This document shows positions 1 to 15,065 of a stretch of 16,123 nt of DNA, one piece after another. Source of the stretch: a virus (taxonomy: Duplodnaviria; Heunggongvirae; Uroviricota; Caudoviricetes). A program made the position numbers and the translations under genes. The stretch covers positions 1 to 16,123 of IMG/VR virus record IMGVR_UViG_2558860288_000003; one strand, given 5' to 3'. The number at the start of each line of letters is the position of its first letter. Position 1 is the first letter of the stretch. The notes under the pieces are model-generated. The model was not told the origin of the DNA. It did no database searches and saw only the letters and a program-made list of their open reading frames with translations.

Positions 1-216
1 AACACCCTCTGCCCAGGCGGCGTATTTCGGCAGCAGCTCCACCTTGATTTCCGCTTTTTTGACCGTGGACTGAACGCCCTTGAGACGGCGGCGGTCTTCC
101 GCCAGTTGCAGCAGCATCAGGTCATAGCCCGATGCGTGGCGAACACTGCCGCCCTCGCGGGCGGCCTGTTCAGCCTGAACGCGCAGGCGATGCTGCCGTG
201 CGGGACTCAGGCTCAT
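1..216 (-). CDS. Terminase small (endonuclease) subunit, P2 gpM family; N-terminal 72 codons only, gene runs off the window
   Basis: Minus-strand ATG at 216-214. The translation MSLSPARQHRLRVQAEQAAREGGSVRHASGYDLMLLQLAEDRRRLKGVQSTVKKAEIKVELLPKYAAWAEGV matches the N-terminal pattern of P2 gpM as I remember it (SPAQRH..RV, RHA, ML..LA.D.R.LK, ELLP, W..GV). A TAA of the preceding in-frame reading lies 3 nt upstream, as at the P2 N/M junction. Confidence 0.7.
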   Translation of the reverse strand, partial: MSLSPARQHRLRVQAEQAAREGGSVRHASGYDLMLLQLAEDRRRLKGVQSTVKKAEIKVELLPKYAAWAEGV

Positions 217-219
217 GGA

Positions 220-420
220 TTACGCTCCGGTTTCGGCTGCGGCGGCGCTGAAATCACCAATCTGGATGTTTTCCACCAGTGCGGCGCAGCGGTAGTCCTC
301 AACCACATAGGCTTCATTAACGGATTCAAAGTTTTCAATCCGGTCACGTTTCGGGTTGTCGATAACTGAACGGCGGCGGGTGTCTTCCTGCCAGTAGATG
401 GACAGGTCAACGAAGCCGAC
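220..420 (-). pseudogene. Major capsid protein (P2 gpN family) C-terminal remnant of about 66 codons with no start codon
   Basis: The minus-strand frame that ends in TAA at 222-220 reads VGFVDLSIYWQEDTRRRSVIDNPKRDRIENFESVNEAYVVEDYRCAALVENIQIGDFSAAAAETGA. This resembles the remembered gpN C-terminus (LSIYY..RRVI.ENPK.DR.EN.ES.N..YVVEDY...LVE.I..GDFS). It is bounded upstream by an in-frame stop at 421-423, contains no Met, and its 5' end overlaps the terminase reading frame. Confidence 0.5.
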
Positions 421-528
421 TTAAACCCTAACGTCGCCAACCGCAACAAAGGCCCGCGCCGTCAGCCGGAAAAGAATGTCTTCACCGATGAACAGATTGA
501 GAAGCTGGAAGAAATCTTCCATTCCTCC

Positions 529-1866
529 ATGTTCAACTACCAGCGCCACTGGTGGGAAGCCGGAAAAACCAACCGCATCCGCAACCTGCTGAAGTCACGC
601 CAGATCGGCGCGACCTTCTATTTTGCCCGTGAAGCCCTGATTGACGCTCTGCTTACCGGACGTAACCAGATTTTTCTTTCCGCCAGCAAGGCACAGGCCC
701 ACGTCTTCAAACAGTACATCATCGACTTTGCCAAAGAAGTGGAGGTGGAGCTGAAAGGCGATCCGATGGTGCTTCCCAACGGGGCCACACTGTATTTCCT
801 CGGCACCAATGCCCGCACGGCCCAGAGTTACCACGGCAACCTGTATCTGGATGAATATTTCTGGATACCGAAATTCCAGGAGCTGCGCAAAGTGGCTTCT
901 GGTATGGCTATTCACAAGAAATGGCGACAAACCTATTTTTCCACGCCATCCAGCCTGACACACAGTGCTTATCCGTTCTGGTCCGGTGCACTGTTCAACC
1001 GTGGGCGCAACAAAGCCGATAAGGTGGACATCGACCTGTCCCACAGCAATCTGGCCCCCGGCCTGCTGTGCGCAGACGGGCAATACCGCCAGATAGTCAC
1101 CGTGGAAGATGCGGTGCGCGGCGGCTGCAACCTGTTCGACCTTGACCAGTTGCGCATGGAGTACAGCCCGGACGAATACCAGAACCTGCTGATGTGCGAG
1201 TTTGTGGACGATCTCGCGTCCGTGTTTCCGCTCAGCGAGCTGCAGGCGTGCATGGTGGACAGTTGGGAAGTCTGGACCGACTTTCATGCTCTGGCCCTGC
1301 GCCCGTTTGGCTGGCGCGAAGTGTGGATCGGTTATGACCCGGCAAAAGGTACGCAGAACGGCGACAGTGCCGGATGCGTGGTGGTGGCACCGCCAGCCGT
1401 GCCAGGCGGTAAGTTCCGCATTCTTGAGCGTCACCAGTGGCGCGGGATGGACTTCCGCGCCCAGGCTGACGCCATCAAAAAACTGACCGAACAGTACAAC
1501 GTGACATACATCGGCATCGACTCAACTGGCGTCGGCCACGGGGTTTACGAGAACGTGAAAGCATTCTTTCCTGCCGTCCGGGAGTTTGTCTACAACCCCA
1601 ACGTTAAAAACGCCCTGGTACTCAAGGCCTACGACATTATCAGCCACCGCCGTCTGGAGTTTGACGCCGGACACACCGACATAGCGCAGTCATTCATGGC
1701 AATCCGTCGCGCCACCACCGCCAGTGGCAACCGCCCGACCTATGAAGCCAGCCGCAGCGAAGAAGCCAGCCACGCCGATCTGGCCTGGGCAACGATGCAC
1801 GCACTGTTTAACGAACCGCTGCAGGGCGAATCCGCCAATACCAGCAATATTGTGGAGATTTTTTGA
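529..1866 (+). CDS. Terminase large (ATPase) subunit, P2 gpP family; apparently N-terminally truncated
   Basis: The 445-aa ORF contains WWEAGKTNRIRNLLKSRQIGATFYFAREA and an acidic-residue-rich nuclease-like C-terminal half typical of P2-type large terminases. The frame stays open upstream to a TGA at 367-369 with protein-like sequence (LNPNVANRNKGPRRQPEKNVFTDEQIEKLEEIFHSS) but no start codon. The stop TGA overlaps the portal ATG. Confidence 0.8.
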   Translation: MFNYQRHWWEAGKTNRIRNLLKSRQIGATFYFAREALIDALLTGRNQIFLSASKAQAHVFKQYIIDFAKEVEVELKGDPMVLPNGATLYFLGTNARTAQSYHGNLYLDEYFWIPKFQELRKVASGMAIHKKWRQTYFSTPSSLTHSAYPFWSGALFNRGRNKADKVDIDLSHSNLAPGLLCADGQYRQIVTVEDAVRGGCNLFDLDQLRMEYSPDEYQNLLMCEFVDDLASVFPLSELQACMVDSWEVWTDFHALALRPFGWREVWIGYDPAKGTQNGDSAGCVVVAPPAVPGGKFRILERHQWRGMDFRAQADAIKKLTEQYNVTYIGIDSTGVGHGVYENVKAFFPAVREFVYNPNVKNALVLKAYDIISHRRLEFDAGHTDIAQSFMAIRRATTASGNRPTYEASRSEEASHADLAWATMHALFNEPLQGESANTSNIVEIF

Positions 1867-2894
1867 TGGGAAAGAGTAAGAAGAACCGCGCTGCGGCGAC
1901 GAAACAGATCCAGCTTAAAAGTCAAACTACAGCCGAAGCATTCAGCTTCGGCGATCCCGTTCCTGTTCTGGACCGCCGTGAACTGCTGGACTATGTGGAA
2001 TGCGTACAGATGGATCGCTGGTATGAGCCGCCTGTGAGTTTCGACGGACTGGCGCGAACCTTCCGCGCCGCCGTGCATCACAGTTCACCAATTGCGGTGA
2101 AATGCAATATTCTGACCAGTACCTACATCCCTCACCCGCTGCTCAGCCAGCAGGCTTTTTCACGTTTTGTGCAGGACTATCTGGTATTTGGTAACGCCTA
2201 TCTGGAGAAACGCACGAACCGGTTCGGTGAAATTATCGCTCTTGAGCCTGCCCTGGCAAAATATACCCGACGCGGGTTAGACCTGGATACCTACTGGTTT
2301 GTGCAATACGGTATGACCACGCAACCGTATCAGTTCACGAAAGGCAGCATTTTTCATCTGATGGAACCAGATATCAACCAGGAGATCTACGGCCTGCCCG
2401 GTTATCTTTCTGCCATTCCGTCAGCCCTGCTCAACGAGTCCGCCACGCTGTTCCGCCGTAAGTATTACATCAACGGCAGCCATGCAGGCTTCATCATGTA
2501 CATGACCGACGCCGCGCAGAACCAGGAAGATGTAAACAATCTCCGTAACGCGATGAAAAGCGCCAAAGGTCCAGGCAACTTCCGCAACCTGTTTATGTAC
2601 TCGCCTAACGGCAAAAAAGACGGGCTTCAGATTATTCCTCTGTCAGAAGTCGCGGCAAAGGATGAATTTTTGAATATCAAGAACGTGAGCCGGGATGACA
2701 TGATGGCAGCACACCGAGTGCCGCCGCAAATGATGGGGATAATGCCGAATAATGTTGGGGGATTTGGGGATGTGGAGAAGGCTAGTAAGGTTTTTATGCG
2801 TAATGAATTGATACCGCTACAAAACAGAATAGAAGAACTCAATAAATGGCTCAAAGATGACATAATAAAATTCATGCCATACAGTTTCATATAA
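1866..2894 (+). CDS. Portal protein, P2 gpQ family
   Basis: The ORF is about 342 aa from the ATG at 1866 (the ORF track began at an in-frame TTG at 1863). Size and position immediately downstream of the terminase ATPase gene match the P2 P-Q operon, with a TGATG overlap and GGAG upstream. Confidence 0.8.
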   Translation: MGKSKKNRAAATKQIQLKSQTTAEAFSFGDPVPVLDRRELLDYVECVQMDRWYEPPVSFDGLARTFRAAVHHSSPIAVKCNILTSTYIPHPLLSQQAFSRFVQDYLVFGNAYLEKRTNRFGEIIALEPALAKYTRRGLDLDTYWFVQYGMTTQPYQFTKGSIFHLMEPDINQEIYGLPGYLSAIPSALLNESATLFRRKYYINGSHAGFIMYMTDAAQNQEDVNNLRNAMKSAKGPGNFRNLFMYSPNGKKDGLQIIPLSEVAAKDEFLNIKNVSRDDMMAAHRVPPQMMGIMPNNVGGFGDVEKASKVFMRNELIPLQNRIEELNKWLKDDIIKFMPYSFI

Positions 2895-2899
2895 AACTA

Positions 2900-2920
2900 A
2901 GGGCCGAATACCTCGGCCCT
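2900..2920. terminator. Stem-loop between the convergent portal gene and cargo gene X
   Basis: AGGGCCGA-ATACC-TCGGCCCT forms a perfect 8-bp stem with a 5-nt loop. On the minus strand it is followed by TTAGTTTTAT, so it is a plausible intrinsic terminator for gene X and possibly also for Q. Confidence 0.45.
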
Positions 2921-2925
2921 CTACA

Positions 2926-4131
2926 TTAAGATTTATGGCTAAAGAGTATACCTGTAACAGAACGTTGATAGGCATCAAGCTTCTCTTGCCTCTGCTTAAA
3001 TTTAGATTTGATATCACTAATACTCGGAATACCTATTACTCCAAGGCCTGCACTTAACGCCGTTAAAGTAGTATTGCCAGTCAGCGCTCCAGCAATTGCT
3101 ATAGCACCATTTGCGATACATGGTAGGACATCTAGTCCGTAAATTCTCAATTTCTCTTTTTGGGCTTTTGCAAGAATCCTTTGATGTTCAATAAAAGCCC
3201 GGTCTACATTATCAATTACTTTTTGCGTTGTCCTCGAAAAGCTCTCTGCCGAAGAATTGATTAAAGAGTCAACACCATTTGATAAGATGGATCTTACATC
3301 CTCCATCAATTTGTTACGTCTCAACTCAATTATTTTATTGACCGGTACATTTCCTAACCATGAAAAACCATCTTGCATACCAGCAGATAACGCATGAACC
3401 ATATGCAAATTTTTTAGTTCAATATCATTGACATCAAAATTAAGAGATTCGTACTCAATAAGCCAAGTATAATAGAGCCAAGATGTGTCTGCATTTATAT
3501 ATGGAGTACTACCAAGTTCTTGTGCATTACATTTTGCTGAATAGGCTTGCGGCATTCTTCCAATGCAGGAAAGGAAAACCTCCATTCCAGCATGATCACC
3601 AACAAGATTACGTGATATTCTTTTTTTATCAGATAGTAGTTTTTCTAATTGAGTTTTTGGATTTAGCCCCCATGCTGTATCAAAAATAAGTCTATCTGCT
3701 CTCTTAATATTTTTAAGAACAGCATCAATATCATTCATCGAATAACTAAAATCTCGAAATTCATCGTAGCTTTCGAACCGTCGATCATAGAGATATTGCG
3801 CATGAGTCAGAGCATAAGGCTCACAAAAACTCATCAAATTTTTTTTGCTCTCAGTTTCAAAATCTCTTCTATCCGGCAAAATTAATACTATTGCTGGCTC
3901 TATATCTTCAAGCGCTACTTCTTTATATGTCATACATGTTAGGACATGCTTCAGAAGTATCCTTGTAAACTCAGCCTTATCTGACTTTTCATAGAGACGA
4001 CCGACTCTTAATATAGGACATGGAAGTGAAATAGTATCAACATACAACCCTGCAATAGAGACAGCATTCTCATCAAATGCAGGAAATAAGTCACCAGAAA
4101 AATTAGCTTTAAACTGAGAACCATCCTGCAA
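2926..4131 (-). CDS. Uncharacterised protein, C-terminal ORF of split gene X (candidate defence / abortive-infection effector)
   Basis: The 401-codon ORF in the track starts at a TTG. The same frame stays open and protein-like for 40 more codons upstream, to a stop at 4252-4254 (SIKFFSQQEEYVKQIEDIFPELYNQVIEFWQVTSDIGVIH), with no ATG. The C-terminal region has a hydrophobic Gly/Ala-rich stretch (LPCIANGAIAIAGALTGNTTLTALSAGLGVIGIPSI). The gene is strongly AT-rich by eye. Confidence 0.6.
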   Translation of the reverse strand: MQDGSQFKANFSGDLFPAFDENAVSIAGLYVDTISLPCPILRVGRLYEKSDKAEFTRILLKHVLTCMTYKEVALEDIEPAIVLILPDRRDFETESKKNLMSFCEPYALTHAQYLYDRRFESYDEFRDFSYSMNDIDAVLKNIKRADRLIFDTAWGLNPKTQLEKLLSDKKRISRNLVGDHAGMEVFLSCIGRMPQAYSAKCNAQELGSTPYINADTSWLYYTWLIEYESLNFDVNDIELKNLHMVHALSAGMQDGFSWLGNVPVNKIIELRRNKLMEDVRSILSNGVDSLINSSAESFSRTTQKVIDNVDRAFIEHQRILAKAQKEKLRIYGLDVLPCIANGAIAIAGALTGNTTLTALSAGLGVIGIPSISDIKSKFKQRQEKLDAYQRSVTGILFSHKS

Positions 4132-4205
4132 ATGTATTACACCAATATCGGATGTTACCTGCCAAAACTCTATTACCTGATTATATAACTCAGGAAAAAT
4201 ATCTT

Positions 4206-4598
4206 CTATTTGCTTAACATATTCTTCTTGTTGAGAAAAAAACTTGATGCTTTATGTGGCGTTGCATTAGTTTTTTTCATCAGATAAAACAACTCGCCAA
4301 AATTACTAAAAAGAATATTAAAGTAAGAACTTTGCAAGTCCTGAATAGAGTATTTGTTTTTTATATCTTCTCTTTCTAAAAAGTGATTAACCGCTGCTCC
4401 CATAGCCCTTATTCTGCCATCAACAGTAGAAGGGTCAACTTTACCATCCTGTCGCAGCCTTATTCTTTTAAAACTTTCAATAAAACCTTCTACAAGATGA
4501 TGAGCTATTTTTAGTTTTCCCGCTTCCAGTTGTTGCTTAATGAGAAAAACACGCTCAGTTAAATCATCTACATATTCCTCATCTTGATATTTTTCCAT
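4206..4598 (-). CDS. Uncharacterised protein, N-terminal ORF of split gene X
   Basis: ATG at 4598 with a GGAG 5 nt upstream (ttaatGGAGcgtttATG). The 130-codon ORF ends shortly after a T7 homopolymer (plus-strand A7 at 4236-4242). One extra T would fuse it in frame to ORF 2926..4131. Confidence 0.55.
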   Translation of the reverse strand: MEKYQDEEYVDDLTERVFLIKQQLEAGKLKIAHHLVEGFIESFKRIRLRQDGKVDPSTVDGRIRAMGAAVNHFLEREDIKNKYSIQDLQSSYFNILFSNFGELFYLMKKTNATPHKASSFFLNKKNMLSK

Positions 4599-4706
4599 AA
4601 ACGCTCCATTAAAATATTTAATAATGCATATAAGAATAGTTAATAATATTTACAGTAACTATATCACATTAGATCCAGATTGTTACACTGTTGCGCGCGC
4701 TCGTAT
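4599..4706 (-). promoter_or_regulatory. AT-rich upstream region of gene X (putative promoter)
   Basis: About 100 bp of very AT-rich non-coding sequence immediately upstream of the gene X start, with several TATA-like hexamers. No -35/-10 pair could be assigned with confidence. Confidence 0.3.
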
Positions 4707-4718
4707 CCCCGCCACGCC
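4707..4718 (-). other. cos-like motif: GGCGTGGCGGGG on the minus strand, matching the first 12 nt of the 186 cohesive end as remembered
   Basis: The plus strand reads CCCCGCCACGCC. The remembered 19-nt cohesive ends are GGCGTGGCGGGGAAAGCAT (186) and GGCGAGGCGGGGAAAGCAC (P2). Here the first 12 nt match 186 exactly and 3 of the remaining 7 also match (about 15/19). Orientation and position (between the A/tum side and Q) fit a cos site. Confidence 0.4.
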
Positions 4719-4767
4719 TGCTCGCTTTGTGTAGTGGTTTTCATGCAGGTGCATGACATAAGCAAAA

Positions 4768-4787
4768 GCCCGCCAGAACTGGCGGGC
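4768..4787 (-). terminator. Hairpin GCCCGCC-AGAACT-GGCGGGC followed on the minus strand by TTTTGCTT
   Basis: Perfect 7-9 bp GC-rich inverted repeat. On the minus strand a T-run follows it, so it is a possible second terminator or structured element in the cos-proximal non-coding region. Confidence 0.35.
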
Positions 4788-5003
4788 CTGCATCAAAACG
4801 ATCCTCAAACGATCATGCGTTCTCATGCAGCATAGTCATGCACGGATGAGAGAAATGAATGCGCGTATCCAAATGCCCGTTTGAAAAACGCAGATGAACT
4901 AAAAAAGCTTAAGGTCTACTATGAGCGAGAAACGGACATTTAATTTTCGAGTAGTGGAAATCGAAGCCAGTACCTGCCGGAGCCATAGTATCGAAACCAC
5001 GAA

Positions 5004-5031
5004 CAATAAAAAGCCTGGAAATATCCAGGCT
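5004..5031 (-). terminator. Intrinsic terminator downstream of the qor-like gene
   Basis: Stem GCCTGGA / TCCAGGC (7-8 bp) with a 4-nt loop. On the minus strand it is followed by TTTTTATTG, and it lies about 37 nt past the qor stop. Confidence 0.55.
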
Positions 5032-5066
5032 GCGCAAGACTCATTTATAGAATGCTGCGGTAAGGA

Positions 5067-6059
5067 TTACTCAACGGTCACAACTATTTTGCCGACCTGT
5101 CCATTGGACTCCATATAGCGCTGGGCGTCTGCAATCTCTTCGAACGGGAACGTCTTATCGATGACCGGCTTCAGTTTGCCGACTCGCAAGCCTTCTGTGA
5201 TAAAGGATTTTGCGCGCGCCATTTTTTCAGAGTCCGTCGTGATTTCAAACAGCTCATATCCACGCAGGGTGAGATGCTTACCGAGAATATCAAATACAGG
5301 CACAAGCATGTCACGGCTATCGAGCGCGCCGTACTGGAAAAACATACCCTGTGGTGCCATCACCTGCGTCAGTTTTGCCACGTCCGGCCCACCGACGGGA
5401 TCAAAAACAATATGGGCACCTGCGCCATCTGTTGCACGACTGATTTCAGCAACCATATCCTGCTCCGCAGTAGCAATGACGGCGGCTGCGCCAGCTTTAA
5501 GGAGCATTTCGCTTTTTTCAGAGGTCCGTGTGAGTGCAATTGGGTTTGCACCCAGCATGTTAGCAATCTGTATGGCAGCCAGACCCACGCTGCTTGATGC
5601 TGCGCGGATCACGACATTCTGACCAGCCTGAAGGTTGCCATACTCAACCAGCGCACCATAAGCGGTGACATACATCATCCAGCTTGCGGCGGCTTCCTCG
5701 AATGAAAGGTTTTCAGGATGCTTTACGACAGCATGAACCGGTGCGTTGACCACTTCACCATACATGCCGTATTCATTAAACATAAATGAAGGGATCACGC
5801 TTACCCGATCTCCAGTGGTAAACTCATCTACATTCTCACCTACTGCCTGTACAACGCCGGCCGCTTCATAACCAAGACGTGCCGGAAATTCCGGCTCAAT
5901 AACATATTGGCCGTTGCGGTACATGATTTCTGCACGGTTGATACCTATCGCATGTACGCGGATCTGCACTTCACCCGCTGTCGGTGCAGGCACCTGCACA
6001 TCAACAACTTCCAGCACTTCCGGGCCACCGGTGCGGTTAAAGGTAATAACTTTAGACAT
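5067..6059 (-). CDS. NAD(P)H:quinone oxidoreductase-like enzyme (medium-chain dehydrogenase/reductase superfamily)
   Basis: The translation MSKVITFNRTGGPEVLEVVDVQVPAPTAGEVQIRVHAIGINRAEI... has the typical quinone-oxidoreductase N-terminus and a Rossmann-type glycine-rich segment (VVIRAASSSVGLAAIQIA). ATG at 6059 with a GAGAG SD; the track start at 6065 is a TTG. Confidence 0.85.
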   Translation of the reverse strand: MSKVITFNRTGGPEVLEVVDVQVPAPTAGEVQIRVHAIGINRAEIMYRNGQYVIEPEFPARLGYEAAGVVQAVGENVDEFTTGDRVSVIPSFMFNEYGMYGEVVNAPVHAVVKHPENLSFEEAAASWMMYVTAYGALVEYGNLQAGQNVVIRAASSSVGLAAIQIANMLGANPIALTRTSEKSEMLLKAGAAAVIATAEQDMVAEISRATDGAGAHIVFDPVGGPDVAKLTQVMAPQGMFFQYGALDSRDMLVPVFDILGKHLTLRGYELFEITTDSEKMARAKSFITEGLRVGKLKPVIDKTFPFEEIADAQRYMESNGQVGKIVVTVE

Positions 6060-6208
6060 ATTCAACTCTCTTCAGTTAAAGGCACACCTTCAGAATAATG
6101 CCGAAGGGATGCCCGAATCATTTGTGAACAATCTACGTTGTTACGAACACACCAGAAATAGCTGAGAGGGAACTTCAGTATTAATTATCCATTAACAATC
6201 CGCCTGCT

Positions 6209-7099
6209 TCAGCGGATCTGCGTGGCCAGAATATCACTGAACCAGTCGATAAAGACGCGCACTTTTGGAGAAAGGTAGCGCCTGTCGGGATACATCACTG
6301 ACACGGGCTTTGACACCGATGGGTATTGCGGCAGAATCTCTTCAAGAGCGCCGGAAGCAATATGGGGAGCAACGGCATCATAGGTAGCCTGGATAATGCC
6401 CAGACCAGCCAGAGCACAAGAAAGCAGAATATCGGAATTATCAACCAGCAGGCTGCCCGCAGGACGTAGCGAAACAATGCTCCCGTCTTCGATAAACTTC
6501 CATTCCATGACGTCACGACTGTGGTCGCTAAAAAAGTTAATTGCCCGATGTTTATCCAGATCCGCAAGTGTTTCTGGCCGCTCATGCTGCTGCAGGTAAG
6601 ACGGGGCTGCACAGGTAACCATCCGGATGTCACCAAGACGTCTGGATATAAAACTAGAATCTTGAAGCGCCCCCAGGCGGACAAGGCAATCTACGCCTTC
6701 CGTAATCAAATCAGTTTTTTTATCGGAAGAAACCAGCACAACTTCAATACCTGGATACAGTGCCTGAAAATGCCTGAGATTAGGGATCAATATGGAATGC
6801 GCCAGCGCCAGGGGCACATCAAGTCTCAGGCGTCCTCGCGGTGGAAGTGTCGGTGAAAAACTGGCCATCATGTCATTAACTTCGGCCAGAACATGCCTAG
6901 CATGATGATAGAACTCATCCCCTTCAGCAGTAACGCTCAGCTTTCGGGTTGTGCGATAAATGAGTTTTACACCCAGATCATGCTCTATCTGCTGTATCGC
7001 TTTGCTCACAGTGGGGCGATGAATCTGAAGTACATCAGCAGCTTTCGTGAAGCTACCCTGCTCAACAACCTGTATGAAAATATTTAGGTATTCAATCAT
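6209..7099 (-). CDS. LysR-family transcriptional regulator
   Basis: From the ATG at 7099 the protein starts MIEYLNIFIQVVEQGSFTKAADVLQIHRPTVSKAIQQIEHDLGVKLIYRTTR..., the canonical LysR-family N-terminal helix-turn-helix. The rest has a substrate-binding-domain-like size of about 296 aa. Confidence 0.85.
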   Translation of the reverse strand: MIEYLNIFIQVVEQGSFTKAADVLQIHRPTVSKAIQQIEHDLGVKLIYRTTRKLSVTAEGDEFYHHARHVLAEVNDMMASFSPTLPPRGRLRLDVPLALAHSILIPNLRHFQALYPGIEVVLVSSDKKTDLITEGVDCLVRLGALQDSSFISRRLGDIRMVTCAAPSYLQQHERPETLADLDKHRAINFFSDHSRDVMEWKFIEDGSIVSLRPAGSLLVDNSDILLSCALAGLGIIQATYDAVAPHIASGALEEILPQYPSVSKPVSVMYPDRRYLSPKVRVFIDWFSDILATQIR

Positions 7100-7333
7100 G
7101 TTGGCATGCACGTGCTCACCTGTTTTGTAGGCTGTTCAAAACCGACATTGTAAAGTAAACCATCCCAACGACATTATTTCTTTTCGTTCAGATAAGGGCT
7201 TTCTGACTGTCACAATGTCCACTTCTGGCACAAAGCGGACGACCATTTTCAAATGGCCGTCGCATCTAACACCTCGTTTCACTCATTGTTCAACCTTACC
7301 CCCATCAGAAGGAATTCTTTCGGGGGCAACGTT

Positions 7334-7567
7334 TCAGTGTAACCAGCTGTCGTCTTCCCAGACCTGCTGCAGAATTTCCATTACACGTTCCTTATCTTCA
7401 GCCTGTCTTACCCCGCTAAGTTCAATACCATTGGCGCTGCCCTTGCGGATTCGGATAGCTGTTTTTGGGTAGAGGGGGCGCAAATTTCGGTAAAGCTCGG
7501 ATTCAAGTGCTTCTAAAAGCATCTGGCTAATTTTCTGCTCTTTATCGATCATTATTTCAATGCGCAT
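7334..7567 (-). CDS. DinI-family protein (186 Tum C-terminal-domain-like)
   Basis: The 77-aa protein MRIEIMIDKEQKISQMLLEALESELYRNLRPLYPKTAIRIRKGSANGIELSGVRQAEDKERVMEILQQVWEDDSWLH aligns with E. coli DinI as remembered (MRIEVTIAK...ELSRR...VSVRYAAANNLSV...KEDKQRISEILQETWE). ATG at 7567 is preceded by AGGGGA. Confidence 0.75.
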   Translation of the reverse strand: MRIEIMIDKEQKISQMLLEALESELYRNLRPLYPKTAIRIRKGSANGIELSGVRQAEDKERVMEILQQVWEDDSWLH

Positions 7568-7577
7568 AGATTTTCCC

Positions 7578-7766
7578 CTAACAGGTAACGTCCATTGTTC
7601 GGCTGTATTCATGGTTGCGGATTTTCGCCATCAGCTCGTCAGTCAGCTCGGAAACCCACTGGATGGCCAGCCGCTTTTCTTCGTCGCTGCACTCGCTCGC
7701 CGCTACCAGTTTTATGAAAAAATCGATGCGCTGAAGTTTCAATGATTCCAAAAGATAATCCTGCAT
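7578..7766 (-). CDS. Small protein, first gene of the SOS operon (Tum N-terminal-like?)
   Basis: ATG at 7766 with a strong SD (taatAGGAGGgaaaATG); the track start at 7787 is a GTG. The 62-aa product is MQDYLLESLKLQRIDFFIKLVAASECSDEEKRLAIQWVSELTDELMAKIRNHEYSRTMDVTC. Its TAG stop lies 10 nt before the DinI-like ATG, suggesting coupling. Confidence 0.5.
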   Translation of the reverse strand: MQDYLLESLKLQRIDFFIKLVAASECSDEEKRLAIQWVSELTDELMAKIRNHEYSRTMDVTC

Positions 7767-7798
7767 TTTCCCTCCTATTACGGCCACTTACACAAGAT

Positions 7799-7833
7799 AA
7801 CTGTATGTATATACACTGTTTATATATACAGTA
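7799..7833 (-). promoter_or_regulatory. LexA operator(s) / SOS-regulated promoter of the tum-like operon
   Basis: cACTGTTTATATATACAGTA at 7814-7833 is a perfect CTGT-N8-ACAG core and matches 18/20 of the consensus TACTGTATATATATACAGTA. A weaker overlapping box at 7799-7818 (aACTGTATGTATATACACTG) has ACAC instead of ACAG. Both lie 35-65 nt upstream of the operon start. Confidence 0.7.
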
Positions 7834-7922
7834 TAGTACCGATTTCTAAATGTAAAACGCTTTTTTGGACTTCAATAAGAAAGCCCTGATATGAGTCAAA
7901 GACAGGAAATATTTTCGGTGTG

Positions 7923-10316
7923 TCAGTAATACTGCCGCCACTTGTCATCCTCACGCAGCCGCCCGTTCTGGTAAAAGATGCGCAGCCCTCCCCCTGACGG
8001 AAGGCTGCCGCCGCGTAAAAGTAAATTCACTTCATACTCACTGCCATCGAACCCTCTGGACCGCAACTCATACTCCAGCTGCAGGCGCTGCTGCTCAGAA
8101 ATATTCTGCTTGTATGCCTTTTTCCGTTTCGGTTTTACCAGCCTGAGCCGGGCAACCAGCTCCCGCCGTTCCTTTTTGCCCATGCCGTGCAGATAGTCCT
8201 GCAGCGCCTTTTCATCCATGGACGTGATACCCGTTACTTCCCCCCCTGTTTGGTTCAAATTTTCAACAGGGGGACAGTTATTGCCACGAGTCCAAGGGGC
8301 GCAAGCGCCCTGGTCGGCTGCCGCCTCCTGAACGTCAACGGCCTTACGAACCATTTTCCACTTCACGGCATGAGTGCAGATCTTGCCCTCTGCAATAGGT
8401 GACCAGATGCCATAAATACGAATGCCGTGATCGCCATAGGCGGTCGGCTCTTCGTTGATTTCATAAGCAGTTCTGATGAGGTGATATTTGCGGGGAACCA
8501 GTACGCCACCCTGCTTCATGATGTAGGTGGCAAAACAACCAGCATCAGCAGCAGCCAGAATGGCATCAAGGCGCGGGTTATCCAGTACCGGCGCACCTGC
8601 TTTTTTGTCCCCCTGTTGCCTTGCCGCCTGACCAGCCAGCAATCGCAGTTCACGGTAAGCCTGACGCCCCGGAATGCCAAAGAAGCGGAATTGCTGAACA
8701 CGATGCAGAGACGCCCAGGCATTAACGTATTCAGCATTATCACGCAGGGATTTCCCCGTTTCCTTGCTGATCTCGCCAGCCAGACCACGCCCGTCAATGT
8801 TCTTACTGATGTATTTCACGATGTAGCTAGTCGGCGTTCCTTTGCGCGGGTTTATCAGCTCAGACTTAAAGCGTGGCCCCGTGTTATTACCCAGCTCCTC
8901 GCGGTCTTCACGGATAGCAAACTTACGCAACAATGCAGTAATGGCGCGGCGGTCTTTTTTGCGCATGAAACACAACAGGTGCCAGTGAACTGTGCCGTCA
9001 TGATGCGGCTCAGCCACCCGCACGCCATACCAGCGCAACCCGGCTTTGTGCATCGCCTTACGAAATGCAGCAAACATGCCGACCAGATAATCACTGCTTT
9101 GTCTTACCGTCGCATTTGTCCAGGTCGGGTTGGGCCTGCCGTTATTTAGCGTGGAATGGAAACGTGACGGACAGGTGATGGTGTAGAAAACGGCGCAGTC
9201 ACCGCGCATTTCCGCGATAAGCTCCAGACCTTTAACACAGGCCATCATCTCATTGCGGCGATGCGCAGGGTTGCTGCTGCTGGCGTTTACCACATCCTCC
9301 ATGTCCAGCGTGTCGCCGTCTTCGTTCACCAGTTCATGAGAACGGAAAAACTCCAGCGACTTACGGCGCTGCTCACGTTTATGCATCACGGCTTCATAGC
9401 TGACATAGGGAGATGCTTTTTTGCTGACCAGGCAAACAGCACGCAACTGCTCTTCCCGCCATTCGCAACGCATCTTCCATAATTTCCGGTACCACCAATC
9501 GGCGCACAACATACGCGCCAGCGAACCCGGAATGAGTTCATAGGGCACGGGTTTACGGCGGTTTCTTTTCCGGCGGAGTTGCTCAAACGCAGGCGGTATG
9601 ACATCCAGTCGCAGGGTTTCTGCTGCCACCTTTTCCCATGTCTTGCGGATTTCTTCTGGCTTAACATCATCGGTGGCGTACAAATCACCACAAGCGGCAT
9701 CAAGACACATACTCATATGCGCAGCGACAAGAGTAGACAGGCGTTTCACCTGATCCTGACTCATTTCAGGCAAGATCAGCAGGCCGTCCAGCCCTTCATG
9801 GCTTGCCATAAAGCGAAAAGAAGTGGATAGCTGACTGTCGCGTACATGCTCCAGTCGTTCCAGACATGGCTTAATCGTCTCACGCAAATAGCGGGAATAA
9901 GCCTTTGGCCTGCCCAGGCTGCTGAAGTATTCAATACGTTGCATCAGCGGCTTGCTGATATGGGAAGGCTGGGCGTTAACGTCCGCCAGTATGACCATGT
10001 CCGGATTAAAACGCTGCTGCTCATGCGCCAGCTTTGCCCGGCTAATAAGCTTATCCTGCTCCATTTCGCGCTGGACAGGATCACGGGATTCATTAAAGAA
10101 ATAACGCTCCCAGACCTGATCACTCAGTGCCTCGCGGCGCAGTTGTTCCTGCTCGTTATCGGCAGCGTACAGAGTGATCAGGTTTGAAAGCGCAGAAACC
10201 GGCGCAACTTCCGCCGGGTCCAGATAAGGGTTAATAGCCTTTTTCGGGCTGTTCCATGAGAATGCTGCGGCGGCCTCGTTAAAGCCGCTGCAGTTGTTCA
10301 TATCAGCATGGCTCAT
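7923..10316 (-). CDS. Replication initiation protein, P2 gpA family (rolling-circle HUH endonuclease)
   Basis: The 797-aa protein contains a His-hydrophobic-His motif ([11 protein letters not shown]) and sits at the P2 gene A position downstream of the early genes. Its start overlaps the dam stop (ATGA). Confidence 0.85.
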
Positions 10317-11170
10317 GCACGCACTCCGTACACGGCAGAACTATCCACGCCACGCGAAGAATCAAATCCCACCCAGCAGCGTGCCCCAGAAACAGCGATG
10401 ATTTCTGTTGCAGATTTACTCTCACCAGCTGCTACGCCGATGCTGCGTTTTGCCTTGATGTAGTGGTGAGTAAAATTGCGATACAGCGAACGGATCAGGG
10501 ATGTGTCACTGTTAGAAACAATGACCGGATGTCCTTCTGATGACCGATGTTCAAGAACGGATGCCAGGTGATACTGGTCATCTTCAGTGAAACCATCAGT
10601 GTGATAGCCGGAAAACGTACCGTCATACGGCGGATCGCAATACACCACATCCCCCGCCTTCAACATCGCCAGCGTTTCATCAAAGCTGGCGCAGATAAAC
10701 GTTGCTCGCTGGGCCTTTTCTGCAAATGCGCGAATTTCTTTTTCAGGGAAATACGGATTTTTATAATTACCGTAGGGAATGTTGAAATGCCCGCTCTTGT
10801 TATAGCTACATAAACCACGGTAACCGTGACGATTGAGATACAGGAAATATACCGCTTTCATGAAATCAGTAATTTCAGTTGAGTAATTAAACTCCTGCCT
10901 TATGTTGTAATAAGCCACCTCCCTGTTTGCGATCTCAAATAAAACTCTGGCGCGAGATATAAACGATTCACAATCAGCAGCAACCTTTTTATAGAGGTTG
11001 ATTAAATCAGGATTAATATCCGCAACAAGATAGCTGGGGTAATCCGTCTCCATCATCACAGCACAGGAACCCGCGAAAGGTTCAACCAGTCGCGGGCCAG
11101 CAGGAAGATGTTTTTTCAGTTCGGACATAATGGTAGTTTTATTACCCGCCCATTTCAGGATGGTGCTCAT
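10313..11170 (-). CDS. DNA adenine methyltransferase (Dam-like, GATC-type N6-adenine MTase)
   Basis: From the ATG at 11170 the protein starts [62 protein letters not shown]... and contains a DPPY catalytic motif ([12 protein letters not shown]). SD AGGAGG; the track start at 11242 lies inside the upstream gene. Confidence 0.85.
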
Positions 11171-11469
11171 ACAGCACCTCCTGCAATAACATATCCTAAA
11201 GCTTCTAATGGGGTTAATGGGCGAATTGATAGCATCACCCATTGTTCTGAAACTGCCATGACGTCATTAACCGGAAGCACATGAGAGATAACAGCGGCCC
11301 ATTCCCTACCCGTAAATACGCCATGCTTCCATTCGCAAAGAGAAAGAACATCACCAACTTTATAGCCACGATCGTCTTTACGAAGTTCAGCCGTCTTTTG
11401 ACCTGCAACCACAGCGTTGAAATACTTAGGTGCAATTTTTAATTGATGGATACGCACTGCCCTTGTCAT
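11167..11469 (-). CDS. Small early protein, ASCH / DUF3850-like
   Basis: From the ATG at 11469 the 100-aa protein starts [41 protein letters not shown].... SD GGAGG. It has ATGA overlaps with both neighbours. Confidence 0.55.
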
Positions 11470-11693
11470 ACAGCACCTCCGTTGTAATGTTTGCCTTTCA
11501 GCTCTACGATTTCCTGGCAGGTAATGCAAAGCTGCACTCCCGGAATGGCGCGGCGTCGTGCTGGCGGAATTGGCGCTTCACATTCAATACAAAGCACGCG
11601 AGACACGCCCGGTGTTTTGGCACGGGCAGCACGAATATGGCGCTGGCGTTCTTCTTCAACGCGCTGCTGTACGAGATCCATTGCATCAGCCAT
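11466..11693 (-). CDS. TraR/DksA-family C4 zinc-finger protein
   Basis: The 75-aa protein has a Cys-x2-Cys ... Cys-x2-Cys arrangement (CIECEAPIP...LCITCQ), typical of the small TraR-like zinc-finger proteins in P2-family early operons. Confidence 0.7.
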
Positions 11694-11926
11694 TAGTGGA
11701 TCTCCTGCGCTTCGTTCTGGATTGCTTCAGCAGTTACACGCAGCAGTTCTGCCGCTTCGACGTGGTTTAGCTGGCGGGATGTGATATGACACGCCAGGCT
11801 ATCAAGGCGAGCTGCCATTGCTTCAGCCCTTGCCCGGCGTTCTTCCAGACGAGCCTCTGTCAGTAAAATATTAAGCCCTGCGTCATCCGGTCCGGTTTTA
11901 GTCGAGAGGGTTTCAATATTACGCAT
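11693..11926 (-). CDS. Hypothetical early protein (small, helical)
   Basis: ATG at 11926 with SD AGGAGA. The 77-aa product is rich in Ala/Arg/Glu. Its stop overlaps the next start (TAATG). Confidence 0.45.
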   Translation of the reverse strand: MRNIETLSTKTGPDDAGLNILLTEARLEERRARAEAMAARLDSLACHITSRQLNHVEAAELLRVTAEAIQNEAQEIH

Positions 11927-11993
11927 AATCAATTCTCCTGAATTTAGATAAAGGGATGCCCGGCGGGTTTACGCCATTAATTTCATTAGTTGG

Positions 11994-12335
11994 TTAATTC
12001 GGCATGGTTAGCCGTCTGGGAAATAAGCTCACCACTGCACGAAAATGATTCATTGCTTTAATCAACTCCCGCTTTTCGTCAGTGGTCAGCTCATTAATGC
12101 TGATGCTATGACGTTCAGCTGGAATTTTTGCCATAAAGAATATGGCAGCCAGTGCCCGTTTATTTTGTTCGCTATTAATATCGCGTGGATCACGCATATC
12201 TTTAATAAACCGCTCAAGCTCTGACTCAATATTCAGACCAAAAACTTTCGCCCTTAACTCCGCAATGTGATTAAGTCCATTCAGGCGTTGACCGGGGCTT
12301 AATGGAACAGTCGCCGCAGCGCCTTCAATAGCCAT
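11994..12335 (-). CDS. Hypothetical early protein (at the 186 dhr position)
   Basis: ATG at 12335 with SD GGGGGA. The 113-aa ORF overlaps the upstream fil-like ORF by 37 nt in another frame. Confidence 0.45.
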   Translation of the reverse strand: MAIEGAAATVPLSPGQRLNGLNHIAELRAKVFGLNIESELERFIKDMRDPRDINSEQNKRALAAIFFMAKIPAERHSISINELTTDEKRELIKAMNHFRAVVSLFPRRLTMPN

Positions 12336-12499
12336 TTGTTCCCCCGTTTTTTCGTAGATAGTTCTGCCAGCAATTCATCTTGTGAACGGCACGGATGCCA
12401 GCGTTTACCATCCTCACCCATGATCCAGCCGTGACCGTAGTGCATTGCCGGGCTTTGTTTAACCAGCAGCGATGCAAATGATGGTTCTTTCGTAAGCAT
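12299..12499 (-). CDS. Small early protein, possibly Fil-like
   Basis: ATG at 12499 with SD GAGGTG; the 66-aa product is MLTKEPSFASLLVKQSPAMHYGHGWIMGEDGKRWHPCRSQDELLAELSTKKRGNK.... The position immediately after cII matches fil in 186. The family assignment is from memory only. Confidence 0.4.
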   Translation of the reverse strand: MLTKEPSFASLLVKQSPAMHYGHGWIMGEDGKRWHPCRSQDELLAELSTKKRGNKWLLKALRRLFH

Positions 12500-12506
12500 A
12501 AGCACC

Positions 12507-13016
12507 TCACAGCAAACCGAATGAAGCACCAAGGCCAGTCATGGTATCAACTGCACTCGCCATCGCCGGGTTAGCCTGTAAACGGGCCTGCAATGAAACA
12601 GCAGCCAGCGCCATCAGTCGTGTTACAGAGTTAATGCTGCTGATAGCATCACGACGACCTGCACTGGTTTTTACATTGCCAGATACCGCACCTGCAGCAA
12701 CACGCCCGATCTCTGCGGTTGCACTCATGACGTAATGCGGCAGTTTCTCTTTTGCTACCTCATTAATCGGTACACATGGCAGGCAGTGAATCTGTGCCAG
12801 AAAACCATCTATCAGCGTTGAATCTTCAGTCAGATCGGTAAGCAGCCAGATTTCTGGCGCATTGAGCTGATGCGGTTGATCTGGGTTGAGTTTGTTTCGC
12901 AGAGTCTGGACATTCATTCCTGCACGTTCTGCCAGCTTCGCCATATTGTGACGAAGTGCAAAAGCTCTACAGGCTTCATCAAAATGCGGGTGTTTGGAAA
13001 TCTTATAATCAAACAT
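12507..13016 (-). CDS. cII: CII-like lysogeny establishment regulator (186 CII family)
   Basis: The 169-aa protein MFDYKISKHPHFDEACRAFALRHNMAKLAERAGMNVQTLRNKLNPDQPHQLNAPEIWLLTDLTEDSTLIDGFLAQIHCLPCVPINE... has the same length and the same start as 186 CII as remembered. SD AAGGGGG. Confidence 0.8.
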   Translation of the reverse strand: MFDYKISKHPHFDEACRAFALRHNMAKLAERAGMNVQTLRNKLNPDQPHQLNAPEIWLLTDLTEDSTLIDGFLAQIHCLPCVPINEVAKEKLPHYVMSATAEIGRVAAGAVSGNVKTSAGRRDAISSINSVTRLMALAAVSLQARLQANPAMASAVDTMTGLGASFGLL

Positions 13017-13048
13017 GCTACCCCCTTAGAAAGTTCTCATAATTGAAC

Positions 13049-13291
13049 TTACTTACCAACAATGACGCGGAAGTTGGAATGACCGAGGGATTCACGGACC
13101 TGATCGGTTTTGTACATTAAATAACGCAGGCTTACGCGGCCTTTGTTTTTTTCTTTCTTGACCATGTATTTAGCAAGCTGACCATGGTGAATTTTTTGAT
13201 ACACGGAGCCGCGGGAGATACCTTCCCATTCCGCGAACTCTGCAGGCGTAGCCATCTCTTTTGGTACACGAATTGAAATATCAGTACTCAT
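13049..13291 (-). CDS. Apl/Cox-like excisionase-repressor, first gene of the lytic operon
   Basis: 80-aa basic protein, divergent from cI and immediately upstream of cII. It has a helix-turn-helix-like segment (ATPAEFAEWEGISRGSVYQKIHHGQL). Confidence 0.6.
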   Translation of the reverse strand: MSTDISIRVPKEMATPAEFAEWEGISRGSVYQKIHHGQLAKYMVKKEKNKGRVSLRYLMYKTDQVRESLGHSNFRVIVGK

Positions 13292-13407
13292 AGTGCAGTA
13301 TCTCTTAGTTTGGTTTCGTTTTATCTTGTTTTATGTGGTTTGGTTTTGCTTTTCAAACCATAAATGGATATTGGGATCACTTTTTATATACGTCAAGGGG
13401 TTTGATT
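13292..13407. promoter_or_regulatory. Divergent lytic/lysogenic promoter-operator switch region
   Basis: 116-bp AT-rich intergenic region between the divergent apl-like and cI-like genes. It has repeated TTTGGTTT motifs (around 13310 and 13339) and an inverted repeat GGTTT-N8-AAACC around 13340-13357. Confidence 0.5.
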
Positions 13408-14040
13408 ATGAGTTTGATCAAGGCGGGAAATGATAGTGGTGGGCGCGATGCAATTAACAGGCTTATTAAGGCTTACAACTTCAGCTCACGACAGCAGCTC
13501 TGCGAACATCTGGAGGTATCCAAAAGCACTATGGCTAACAGATACTTAAGGGATAGCTTTCCTGCCGAATGGGTAATTCAATGTGCCCTTGAAACAGGAG
13601 CTTCCCTTCTATGGCTGGCTACTGGTCAAGGAGATATGTATGCGTGTGAGAACGAAGAAACAAATCTCAAAAATGAACCTCCCGTCACTGTAAGACCACT
13701 TTCTAAGATCGTTGCTCCTAGCATCAAACGTGTTGAACTGAAGAACGGCGAACTGCAGGCAAGTGATGAAATTCTTCTTGATAGCAGCCTGCTCGATGGT
13801 GACTCATCCAACGCTTTATTTGTTAAAACAGCTAATAATAGCTTTGTAGTGGATACGTCCGTTAAACAAGTCAGTAATGGCTTCTGGTTAGTCGATATGG
13901 ACGGAGTTAAAAGCATCGTCAAAATTGCGCGCATACCCGGAAACAAAATAGTAGTTAACCAAGATGACACTTCATTTGAATGTTCTGTAGATGATGTGGA
14001 AGTCGTAGGACGTGCAGTCAAAGTAATCAAGAACCTCTAA
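13408..14040 (+). CDS. cI: CI-like immunity repressor (186 CI type)
   Basis: ATG at 13408 with SD AAGGGG (the track start at 13333 has no SD and a non-protein-like leader). The 210-aa protein has an N-terminal DNA-binding-like region, sits divergent from apl/cII and lies directly upstream of int. Confidence 0.75.
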   Translation: MSLIKAGNDSGGRDAINRLIKAYNFSSRQQLCEHLEVSKSTMANRYLRDSFPAEWVIQCALETGASLLWLATGQGDMYACENEETNLKNEPPVTVRPLSKIVAPSIKRVELKNGELQASDEILLDSSLLDGDSSNALFVKTANNSFVVDTSVKQVSNGFWLVDMDGVKSIVKIARIPGNKIVVNQDDTSFECSVDDVEVVGRAVKVIKNL

Positions 14041-14043
14041 CTT

Positions 14044-15060
14044 ATGACCATCAGAAAACAGCCGAACGGAAAATGGTTGTGTGAGTGCTATCCCAATGGA
14101 CGCAATGGTAAGCGCGTGCGTAAGCAATTTGCTACCAAAGGCGAAGCCATTGCATTTGAAAGCTTCACCATGGACGAAGTAAACAAAAAGCCATGGCTTG
14201 GTGAGAAGGAAGATCGGCGGCGATTATCAGAAGTGATTGAGCAGTGGTATTCCCTATATGGTCAAACACTCGCAGACCCCAAACGCCTGATGGCGAAACT
14301 TAGAATTATCTGTAATGGTCTAGGCGATCCCATCGCCTCTGAGCTGACAGCAGGTGATTTCACAAAATATCGGGAAGCCAGATTAAAGGGGGAGGTCCAA
14401 AATGAAGACGGCTCGTTCATGTCACCCGTTAAACCTCGCACAGTTAATCTTGAGCAGCGTAACCTGTCATCGGTGTTCGGTACATTGAAAAAACTAGGGC
14501 ACTGGTCCGCACCAAACCCGCTGGCAGGGCTTCCAACCTTCAAAATTGCTGAAGGTGAATTGGCTTTTCTTTCCACGGACGAAATCAAACGCCTGCTTAA
14601 TGCCTGCGCCGAATCTCAAAACACCAGCCTACTAATGATTGCAAAAATATGCCTGGCTACTGGTGCGCGATGGAGTGAAGCAGAAAACTTGCAGGGCCAT
14701 CAGTTATCAAAATACCGGATCACCTATACCAAGACAAAAGGTAAGAAAAATCGTACCGTGCCGATATCTCAAAATCTGTATGATGAACTCCCCAAGAACA
14801 GAGGGAAACTATTCACACCGTGCAGAAAAGCCTTTGAACGAGCAGTAAAGCGAGCAGGCATCGAGCTACCAGAGGGCCAATGCACCCACGTGCTGCGTCA
14901 TACATTCGCCAGTCATTTTATGATGAATGGCGGGAATATTCTTGTCCTTAAAGAAATATTGGGCCATGCCGATATAAAAATGACGATGGTTTACGCACAC
15001 TTTTCTCCAGACCATCTAGAAGATGCTGTTACAAAAAATCCTTTACATAATTTGGTTTAA
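14044..15060 (+). CDS. int: Tyrosine integrase, P2/186 family
   Basis: The 338-aa protein starts MTIRKQPNGKWLCECYPNGRNGKRVRKQFATKGEAIAFESF..., typical of P2-family integrases. The C-terminal catalytic region has HVLRHTFASHF and a Tyr in MVYAHF. Confidence 0.9.
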   Translation: MTIRKQPNGKWLCECYPNGRNGKRVRKQFATKGEAIAFESFTMDEVNKKPWLGEKEDRRRLSEVIEQWYSLYGQTLADPKRLMAKLRIICNGLGDPIASELTAGDFTKYREARLKGEVQNEDGSFMSPVKPRTVNLEQRNLSSVFGTLKKLGHWSAPNPLAGLPTFKIAEGELAFLSTDEIKRLLNACAESQNTSLLMIAKICLATGARWSEAENLQGHQLSKYRITYTKTKGKKNRTVPISQNLYDELPKNRGKLFTPCRKAFERAVKRAGIELPEGQCTHVLRHTFASHFMMNGGNILVLKEILGHADIKMTMVYAHFSPDHLEDAVTKNPLHNLV

Positions 15061-15065
15061 TAGAA

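Follow-up and report, generated by a model that had tools for sequence, protein, structure and literature searches.

Introduction

The cos site of phage lambda (cosQ-cosN-cosB) is asymmetric, with a nick site that is flanked on one side by terminase-binding repeats, and its overhang is 12 nt long. Terminases of the P2 family act on monomeric circles, and the P2 terminase also packages the satellite P4. The cos sequence of P2 and P4 is GGCGAGGCGGGGAAAGCAC, and a cos core of about 55 bp common to the two has been described (Ziermann and Calendar, 1990, as cited in passages of PMC3931495 and PMC5694545). For 186 and PSP3 the cos sequence is GGCGTGGCGGGGAAAGCAT, and further variants have been reported in Stenotrophomonas phage Smp131 (GGCGTGGCGGGGAGACGAG) and in SEN4 and SEN5 (ggcgaggcgggggaacgag). 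The genome record of SEN8 begins with its cohesive-end sequence, and ggcgtggcggggatacgag is annotated there as cos by its authors, which is an annotation and not a mapping. In E. coli HS induced with mitomycin C, however, the cos 5'-GGCGTGGCGGGGATACGAG-3' was located at 926016-926034 by read starts and PhageTerm (PMC8008629, Table S4).

In P2-like prophages, the cos-proximal region between gpA and gpQ is a hotspot for accessory, mostly anti-phage genes, for which Rousset et al. (2022; PMC9122126) reported 1,650 arrangements in E. coli. This hotspot was confirmed by a paper in NAR in 2026 (PMC13586616) and is credited as well to Dodd and Egan (1996) and Nakayama (1999), both cited in PMC5694545 (Askora, 2017, cites Dodd and Egan). 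In the consulted portions of PMC9122126 and PMC13586616, the genes between A and Q near cos are variable accessory genes, often anti-phage ones, and they are presented as one cos-adjacent locus for which the side of cos is left unstated.

Here, we analyze 16,123 nt of DNA from a member of the Caudoviricetes (IMG/VR virus record IMGVR_UViG_2558860288_000003, positions 1 to 16,123), in the following called the window. A preliminary description, made from the sequence alone, had noticed a cos-like motif around position 4700, separated from the portal gene by an AT-rich gene named X. It had offered two alternatives, namely that the insertion of X at or next to cos had possibly disturbed the site, or that the cos of this phage is divergent and has a cargo slot towards the portal gene.

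Results

The Cohesive End

The gene map around cos was built from open reading frames and Pfam matches, and cos sequences of P2 (NC_001895), 186 (NC_001317) and PSP3 (NC_005340) served as references. On the minus strand, positions 4718-4707 read GGCGTGGCGGGG, exactly as the preliminary description had it, and are followed by ATACGAG. The 186 cohesive end quoted there is correct as well, since bases 1-19 of both NC_001317 and NC_005340, annotated as cos, have the same sequence, and three of the seven nucleotides after the 12-mer agree with 186, as had been stated. Within the window the 12-mer occurs a single time, also when one mismatch is allowed. An exact match to a 12-mer is expected by chance 0.001-0.002 times in a stretch of this size, close to the earlier estimate of about 0.002. 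When the window was searched with a degenerate 18-mer of the P2/186 type, allowing up to three mismatches, no second cos was detected in it, and the full cos elsewhere that had been considered at the outset is therefore absent from this window.

The complete G+C-rich 19-nt cohesive-end sequence, the equivalent of cosN, extends over positions 4718-4700 of the minus strand, starts according to the P2-family pattern GGCG(A/T)GGCGGGG and reads GGCGTGGCGGGGATACGAG, which is identical to the cos annotated for SEN8 and to the one mapped in E. coli HS. When compared to the cos of 186 and PSP3, the first 13 nucleotides are identical and 15 of 19 agree overall, with differences at positions 14, 16, 17 and 19. 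The cos of P2 and P4 has the same architecture, and its overhang matches that of the window at 14 of 19 positions. With the cos of lambda, which is a functional analogue, there is no sequence relation. In this element, the nicks would precede 4718 on the minus strand and follow 4700 on the plus strand. The portal gene lies on one side of the site and the replication-gene end of the genome on the other, with the 5' end of the overhang directed towards the portal side. Place and orientation are those expected for the cos of the phage, as had been proposed, since the gene order is the same as in Fels-2, SopEPhi, SEN8 and E. coli HS.

Fels-2, SopEPhi, Yersinia phage vB_YpM_MLG42 and the E. coli prophages closest to the window all have the same plus-strand sequence, TTGCGCGCG-CTCGTATCCCCGCCACGCC. 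For a wider comparison, 80 loci were fetched through the portal protein, one genome per species, and the 57 with a portal identity of at least 72% and a recognisable cos downstream of the portal gene were retained. Among these 57 loci, 34 carry a 19-mer identical to that of the window, and most of the others differ at position 13 only. The cos 26-mer was also present in more than 120 IMG/VR contigs, mostly prophage-derived in appearance, a count that says nothing on physical ends. The mapping of ends after mitomycin C induction that the preliminary description had suggested is already available for one relative, E. coli HS, in whose genome we confirmed GGCGTGGCGGGGATACGAG at 926016-926034. The HS cos island and that of the window are identical at 136 of 152 positions, and the 16 differences include an A at position 4722 that is private to the window. 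The HS phage carries 1.5 kb of cargo, with a gene for 463 amino acids, between cos and portal.

In one metagenomic contig (L164, IMGVR_UViG_3300011853_000021), inverted copies of the cos 26-mer were found at 3440-3465 and 6704-6729. Both copies sit in a multi-kb inverted duplication with arms that are 80-97% complementary, and the contig most likely arose as a fold-back chimera when two related phages were assembled together.

The Conserved cos Island

The preliminary description had proposed an alignment with the cos regions of P2, 186 and related prophages, and in this comparison homology reaches far past the 12-mer. With the circularised cos junctions of 186, PSP3 and P2, and also with the junction of P4, an alignment was obtained over -125 to +26 relative to the overhang. 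A block of 151 bp (4693-4843), here referred to as the cos island, is matched at about 80-95% identity by 93 phage records and by about 1,190 complete E. coli genomes. The phages that bear it include Fels-2, SopEPhi, RE2010, SEN8 and many P2-like phages of Klebsiella and Yersinia. In blastn comparisons with relatives, homology breaks at 4690-4695 on the portal side and, in nearly all relatives, at 4842-4844 on the other side.

An ungapped, overhang-anchored information profile was calculated from 53 distinct species-level loci. In this profile, conservation is high from -125 to +24, weaker at +25 and +26, and at background beyond both limits. On the portal side, 1.7-2.0 bits were obtained up to +24, 1.2 bits at +25, 0.8 bits at +26 and no more than 0.2 bits farther out; on the replication-gene side, background is reached at -126. 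The sharp limits on both sides indicate that the selected unit is the 151-bp island. Clearly, the island is asymmetric, with 7-8 nt between the overhang and its limit on the portal side versus about 125 nt on the replication-gene side.

On the portal side, the overhang is directly followed by the conserved CGCGCGCA (4692-4699, minus strand; +19 to +26), which constitutes the last conserved bases according to both information content and blastn. A GCGCGC in this place is also found in P2, P4, 186 and PSP3. The window also contains the core of about 55 bp that P2 and P4 share (-29 to +26), with GCGCGC to the left and TGCAT..AAAACC to the right. This P2/P4 core ends 7 nt past the overhang, which is where conservation in the clade of the window ends. 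The elements common to P2, 186, PSP3 and the window comprise a distal TGCAT pair, TCATGCA-NN-TGCAT(G/T)AAAACC, the overhang and then GCGCGC. P4 shares the distal TGCAT pair with P2 and with the window, and 186 and PSP3 resemble the window in the GCGCGC, the proximal TCATGCA-NN-TGCAT and the distal pair.

On the other side of the overhang lies the conserved right-end flank of cos (4719-4843, minus strand; -1 to -125), the presumed terminase recognition region, as suggested by conservation among the 53 loci and by homology to the right ends of 186, PSP3, P2 and P4. This flank is intact in the window. Closest to the overhang, it contains a perfect dyad, TCATGCA-CC-TGCATGA (4741-4756), at a distance of 23-38 nt from the nick, with 1.9-2.0 bits per arm position. 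The dyad is nearly invariant in relatives, and 186 has TCATGCAACTGCATTA at the equivalent place. Farther out, at 4766-4789 (minus strand), a G+C-rich hairpin followed by a run of T resembles an intrinsic terminator. It is kept in relatives, in some of them with other stem sequences, and, as such an element, would halt transcripts that run leftward from the A/DinI/cargo side ahead of cos. Two direct repeats of GATCGTTT with a spacing of 11 nt (4796-4814, minus strand), each containing a Dam site (GATC), are conserved in relatives. At the distal end, two copies of TGCATGA (4823-4829 and 4836-4842, minus strand) are the equivalent of the TGCAT pair in P2, P4, 186 and PSP3. Four of the five TGCATGA copies of the window are located within the 102 bp of 4741-4842 (Poisson P of about 2e-8). 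From their conservation, the TGCATGA, GATCGTTT and hairpin elements may have roles in the function of this flank.

A Dam-type methylase is encoded by the same prophage at 10313-11242; a link between methylation and packaging via the Dam sites in GATCGTTT would be pure speculation.

The island of the window differs from that of all its relatives by a G-to-A change at 4722, 4 nt from the presumed top-strand nick. At this position, A is present in none of the 57 relatives, of which 51 have G and 6 have C. Besides 4722, all strongly conserved positions of the island are retained.

Cargo Between cos and the Portal Gene

The portal gene, a homologue of P2 Q with the Pfam domain Phage_portal, is located at 1863-2894 on the plus strand. 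From its stop codon (2894) to the 19-mer (4700-4718) we measured 1,805 nt, in accordance with the spacing of about 1.8 kb given initially. The distance from portal to overhang is 167 nt in P2, 176 nt in 186 and 178 nt in PSP3, so the earlier remark that the portal gene ends near cos in P2 and 186 was right. Unlike the window, 186 and PSP3 have an empty slot on the portal side (176-178 nt). The portal side is empty in P2 too (167 nt), where the cargo genes old and tin lie on the A side, with old next to cosR, whereas the window uses both sides.

The Q-to-cos distance in relatives, a comparison suggested by the preliminary description, ranges from 148 to 3,499 nt among the 57 loci, and the window turns out to be typical. 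Nine of the 57 loci are empty, with about 150-250 nt as in P2, 186 and PSP3. The remaining 48 are filled with 0.6-3.5 kb, the median being 1,790 nt versus 1,805 nt in the window. Portal-side cargo (48/57) is the majority state in the clade and the arrangement is ordinary. Empty sites retain the same 19-mer and the CGCGCG flank, and four loci (L022, L038, L042 and L043) combine an empty slot with the same 19-mer and CGCGCGCA.

The gene content between Q and cos varies among close relatives with conserved flanks, and the cargo open reading frames of different loci are unrelated to each other. Recognised anti-phage systems are frequent among the cargo of relatives. The gene STM2723.1 of Fels-2 matches AbiU (E = 3e-112), orf14 and orf15 of SopEPhi are ShosT and ShosA (ShosTA), and the slot of phage 500465-1 contains a bSEFIR/TIR gene. 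In the species-level loci, cargo matched AbiLi, AriA, PD-T4-9, Old and several PDC candidates, and PARIS-like genes also belong to the recognisable defence cargo of relatives.

Of 90 slot open reading frames of at least 90 amino acids (loci L017-L088), 87 read from cos towards the portal and converge with Q, as X does. In the parts of the hotspot literature consulted, we found no mention of such an orientation bias.

The homology of the window to relatives breaks at about 2824-2884 and at 4693 (blastn). The first of these positions, where the homology of the portal gene fades, lies within the portal gene. The divergent 3' end of Q implies that the recombination boundary on the portal side is inside Q and not after it. 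The last 10-20 or so codons of the portal gene (2824-2894) are AT-rich, unlike those of relatives. At the other end of the slot, only 7-8 nt are under constraint on the portal side of the overhang, and the DNA from +27 is therefore free to vary.

Gene X and Its Relatives

The portal-side cargo of the window, gene X (2926-4598, minus strand), comprises 1,673 nt with 32-39% G+C, compared to 50-60% in the portal and terminase genes. The presence of an AT-rich gene of about 1.7 kb between cos and Q is confirmed, but X is not intact in the window as had been assumed. It is frameshifted and appears as two open reading frames (4598-4206 and 4131-2926) of 130 and 401 amino acids, due to a 1-nt deletion that shortens a run of eight T to seven at 4236-4242. 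The same DNA, with about 99% identity, is present in 17 complete E. coli genomes, where it encodes the intact protein WP_024235280.1 of 557 amino acids, to which X corresponds; from the DNA for this protein, X of the window differs by one substitution and the 1-nt deletion. The frameshift reflects either a pseudogene or a homopolymer sequencing error.

Full-length members of the X family have about 556-560 amino acids, occur in Enterobacterales, Aeromonas, Aquitalea and others, and are always named hypothetical. Searches of X against Pfam, NCBIfam and PHROGs gave no match. In PADLOC, a weak match was obtained with DitB (PDLC03827; 36 bits, E = 7e-10), covering residues 195-452 (258 of 557) of X and positions 95-344 of the 361 of the profile, along with a marginal match to LeoBC. 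No DitA partner or DitA-like region was detected at E <= 0.1. Compared to DitB of Aditi, X is one gene for 557 amino acids with additional N- and C-terminal parts. We had considered X as a member of the Aditi system (DitA plus DitB), an assignment that was rejected because no DitA was detected. In intact relatives, X is a solitary gene that fills the slot. The predicted structure of X (pLDDT 83, mostly helical) gave no informative fold match in the PDB.

Distant homologues of X are solitary genes in mobile or defence contexts. On a contig of Aquitalea sp. (L100, 1440-13683), an X homologue is located between UvrD-helicase/HNH genes and an OLD-TOPRIM ATPase with UvrD (Gabija-like), inside a Tn7-like element with TniQ, TniB and transposase. 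In the P2 hotspot, X has been catalogued before: in the portion of PMC9122126 consulted, WP_024235280 is found at least six times in Table S5 (P2 hotspot loci), in the context 'hypothetical + DinI + hypothetical', and X is therefore known as cargo at the gpA-gpQ locus. It is absent from the table of systems tested in the same portion of that source.

Upstream of X, a consensus scan predicted a sigma-70-like promoter, GTAACA-17-TATAGT with TG (4658-4686, minus strand), which sits in variable DNA just past cos. Behind X, a terminator-like hairpin (2899-2921, minus strand) lies in the 31 nt that separate X from the portal gene, with which it converges. That X is a defence gene is plausible but unproven.

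The Replication-Gene Side and the Early Region

A second cargo slot is present on the A-gene side of cos (4845-7265, minus strand), with Pfam matches to a Zn-dependent alcohol dehydrogenase (5067-6065) and a LysR regulator (6209-7111). These two genes are 99.7% identical to the tRNA-Phe island of E. coli G3/10 and are missing from the corresponding place in E. coli relatives. This cargo is metabolic and regulatory, not defence, which sets it apart from the often anti-phage content of the published hotspot. The slot is bounded by conserved genes (7334-10316, minus strand) for a DinI/Tum-like protein (7334-7612; Pfam DinI), a small open reading frame (7578-7787) and the replication gene A (7923-10316; Pfam Phage_GPA). 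On the phage map, which corresponds to the minus strand of the window, the order is A, DinI, cargo slot 1, cos island, cargo slot 2 (X) and portal gene Q. Whereas the hotspot has been described, in the portions of the literature consulted, as one locus next to cos, there are two slots here and both are filled.

The dehydrogenase and LysR genes had also been considered as host DNA that would mark the prophage boundary. This was rejected, as the phage genes DinI and A resume directly after them and the module is found elsewhere as part of a genomic island.

The remainder of the window forms an early region of the 186 type, with integrase, CI, CII, DUF5347, DUF2732, a TraR-like protein, the Dam methylase, A and DinI; the early order CI, Apl, CII, Fil and DinI/Tum is shared with 186. 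An open reading frame for 366 amino acids (15023-16123), without a match in Pfam or PADLOC, starts in the 3' end of the integrase gene. It may represent cargo in the integrase-att slot that is mentioned in the part of PMC13586616 consulted.

A Deletion in the Head Genes

Relative to the closest E. coli prophage (L002), 2,171 bp are deleted at 407/408 of the window; window positions 2-407 correspond to L002 1032-1437 and window positions 408-4844 to L002 3609-8046. The deletion takes most of the capsid gene N, all of the scaffold gene O and the first 103 or so codons of the terminase gene P. What is left of the large terminase gene P (408-1866, plus strand) contains the Terminase_6N and 6C domains. 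The 407/408 junction was found in none of 5,426 complete E. coli genomes. Consequently, the element does not encode a complete cognate terminase and head of its own, a defect that concerns activity in cis and not the identity of the cos site. As head and terminase genes are deleted, no virions are expected on induction without a helper, and the cos could be used only in trans by a related helper.

Discussion

The region 4692-4843 is, in our judgement very probably, the cos packaging site of a 186/Fels-2-type prophage of the P2 family (Peduoviridae), in the form that is standard for its clade. With the cos of the Fels-2 type (E. coli HS and the Salmonella phages SEN8, Fels-2 and SopEPhi) it has in common the 19-nt overhang together with the 7-8 nt that follow, the island of 151 bp, a place flanked by A/DinI and Q, and the presence of cargo that separates cos from Q. 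It differs from these phages in its cargo genes and in that the copy of the window belongs to a deleted, non-autonomous prophage. The cos variant with the ATACGAG end is the common Fels-2-type form and has been mapped in a relative, and the slot has been published; both are already known. Of the two alternatives formulated initially, the data agree with the second, in which a divergent cos has a slot for cargo on its portal side.

By analogy with P2 and 186, terminase (small subunit M and large subunit P) would bind to the A-side flank of about 125 bp, which would offer it the TGCATGA repeats, the TCATGCA-NN-TGCATGA dyad, the two copies of GATCGTTT and the hairpin. Terminase would then introduce nicks 19 nt apart, generating the 5' overhang GGCGTGGCGGGGATACGAG. 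The DNA from +27 onwards serves as a site for exchangeable cassettes, with the end of Q and the cos island as its two recombination anchors. Gene X is one such cassette and has left cos unaltered; foreign DNA from +27 would be tolerated beside the portal without harm to packaging because the portal side needs almost nothing. Terminase contacts, nick positions and the activity of this copy are deduced here from conservation and from the comparison with P2 and P4.

The alternative that survives best, albeit with a rather low probability, is that the site is a true cos by descent which has become a dead relic, neither cleaved nor packaged by anything. The 2,171-bp deletion in N-O-P, the frameshift in X and the unique A at 4722 would fit such a relic, and a junction that is present in no complete E. 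coli genome suggests a decaying element. However, every strongly conserved position of the island except 4722 has been kept, and with 136 of 152 positions the island is identical to the functional site of HS. Moreover, cos sites of the P2 family work in trans for satellites such as P4, which shares only the core with P2.

Far less probable is that, along the lines of the first alternative of the preliminary description, the insertion of X within or next to cos changed the 3' part of the cohesive end or the terminase flank, leaving a damaged or divergent cos that is peculiar to this phage. The last six nucleotides of the overhang do differ from 186 at four positions, and AT-rich foreign DNA begins 8 nt past the overhang. 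However, the same 19-mer with CGCGCGCA occurs next to unrelated cargo in Fels-2, SopEPhi, SEN8 and E. coli HS as well as next to empty slots, the conserved flank lies on the opposite side and is intact, and the HS phage with the same layout is inducible and has its ends mapped at the same 19-mer. A chance G-rich match unrelated to packaging, although only three of the seven following nucleotides agree with 186, has a negligible probability given the expectation of 0.001-0.002 occurrences, the homology of the surrounding 151-bp block to the cos regions of 186, PSP3, P2 and P4, its conservation in dozens of relatives, and the identity of the full 19-mer to a mapped cohesive end.

With a clade-standard cos as the preferred reading, some interest remains in the question whether packaging in trans is still possible for a head-less remnant that has kept its cos almost intact. 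We mention as a tentative and rather doubtful scenario that X is a single-gene anti-phage cassette, recently inactivated here, within a head-less remnant of the P2 type that could be packaged in trans like a satellite. Gene X itself is a reasonable, if unremarkable, candidate for defence-gene screening.

In summary, cargo between cos and portal is the rule in this clade and there is no sign of a disrupted packaging site. What the present analysis adds is that the gpA-gpQ locus resolves into two slots split by the cos island, and the limits of this island (4693-4843) provide exact boundaries by which cos can be annotated, and the two cargo slots delimited, in prophages of this kind.
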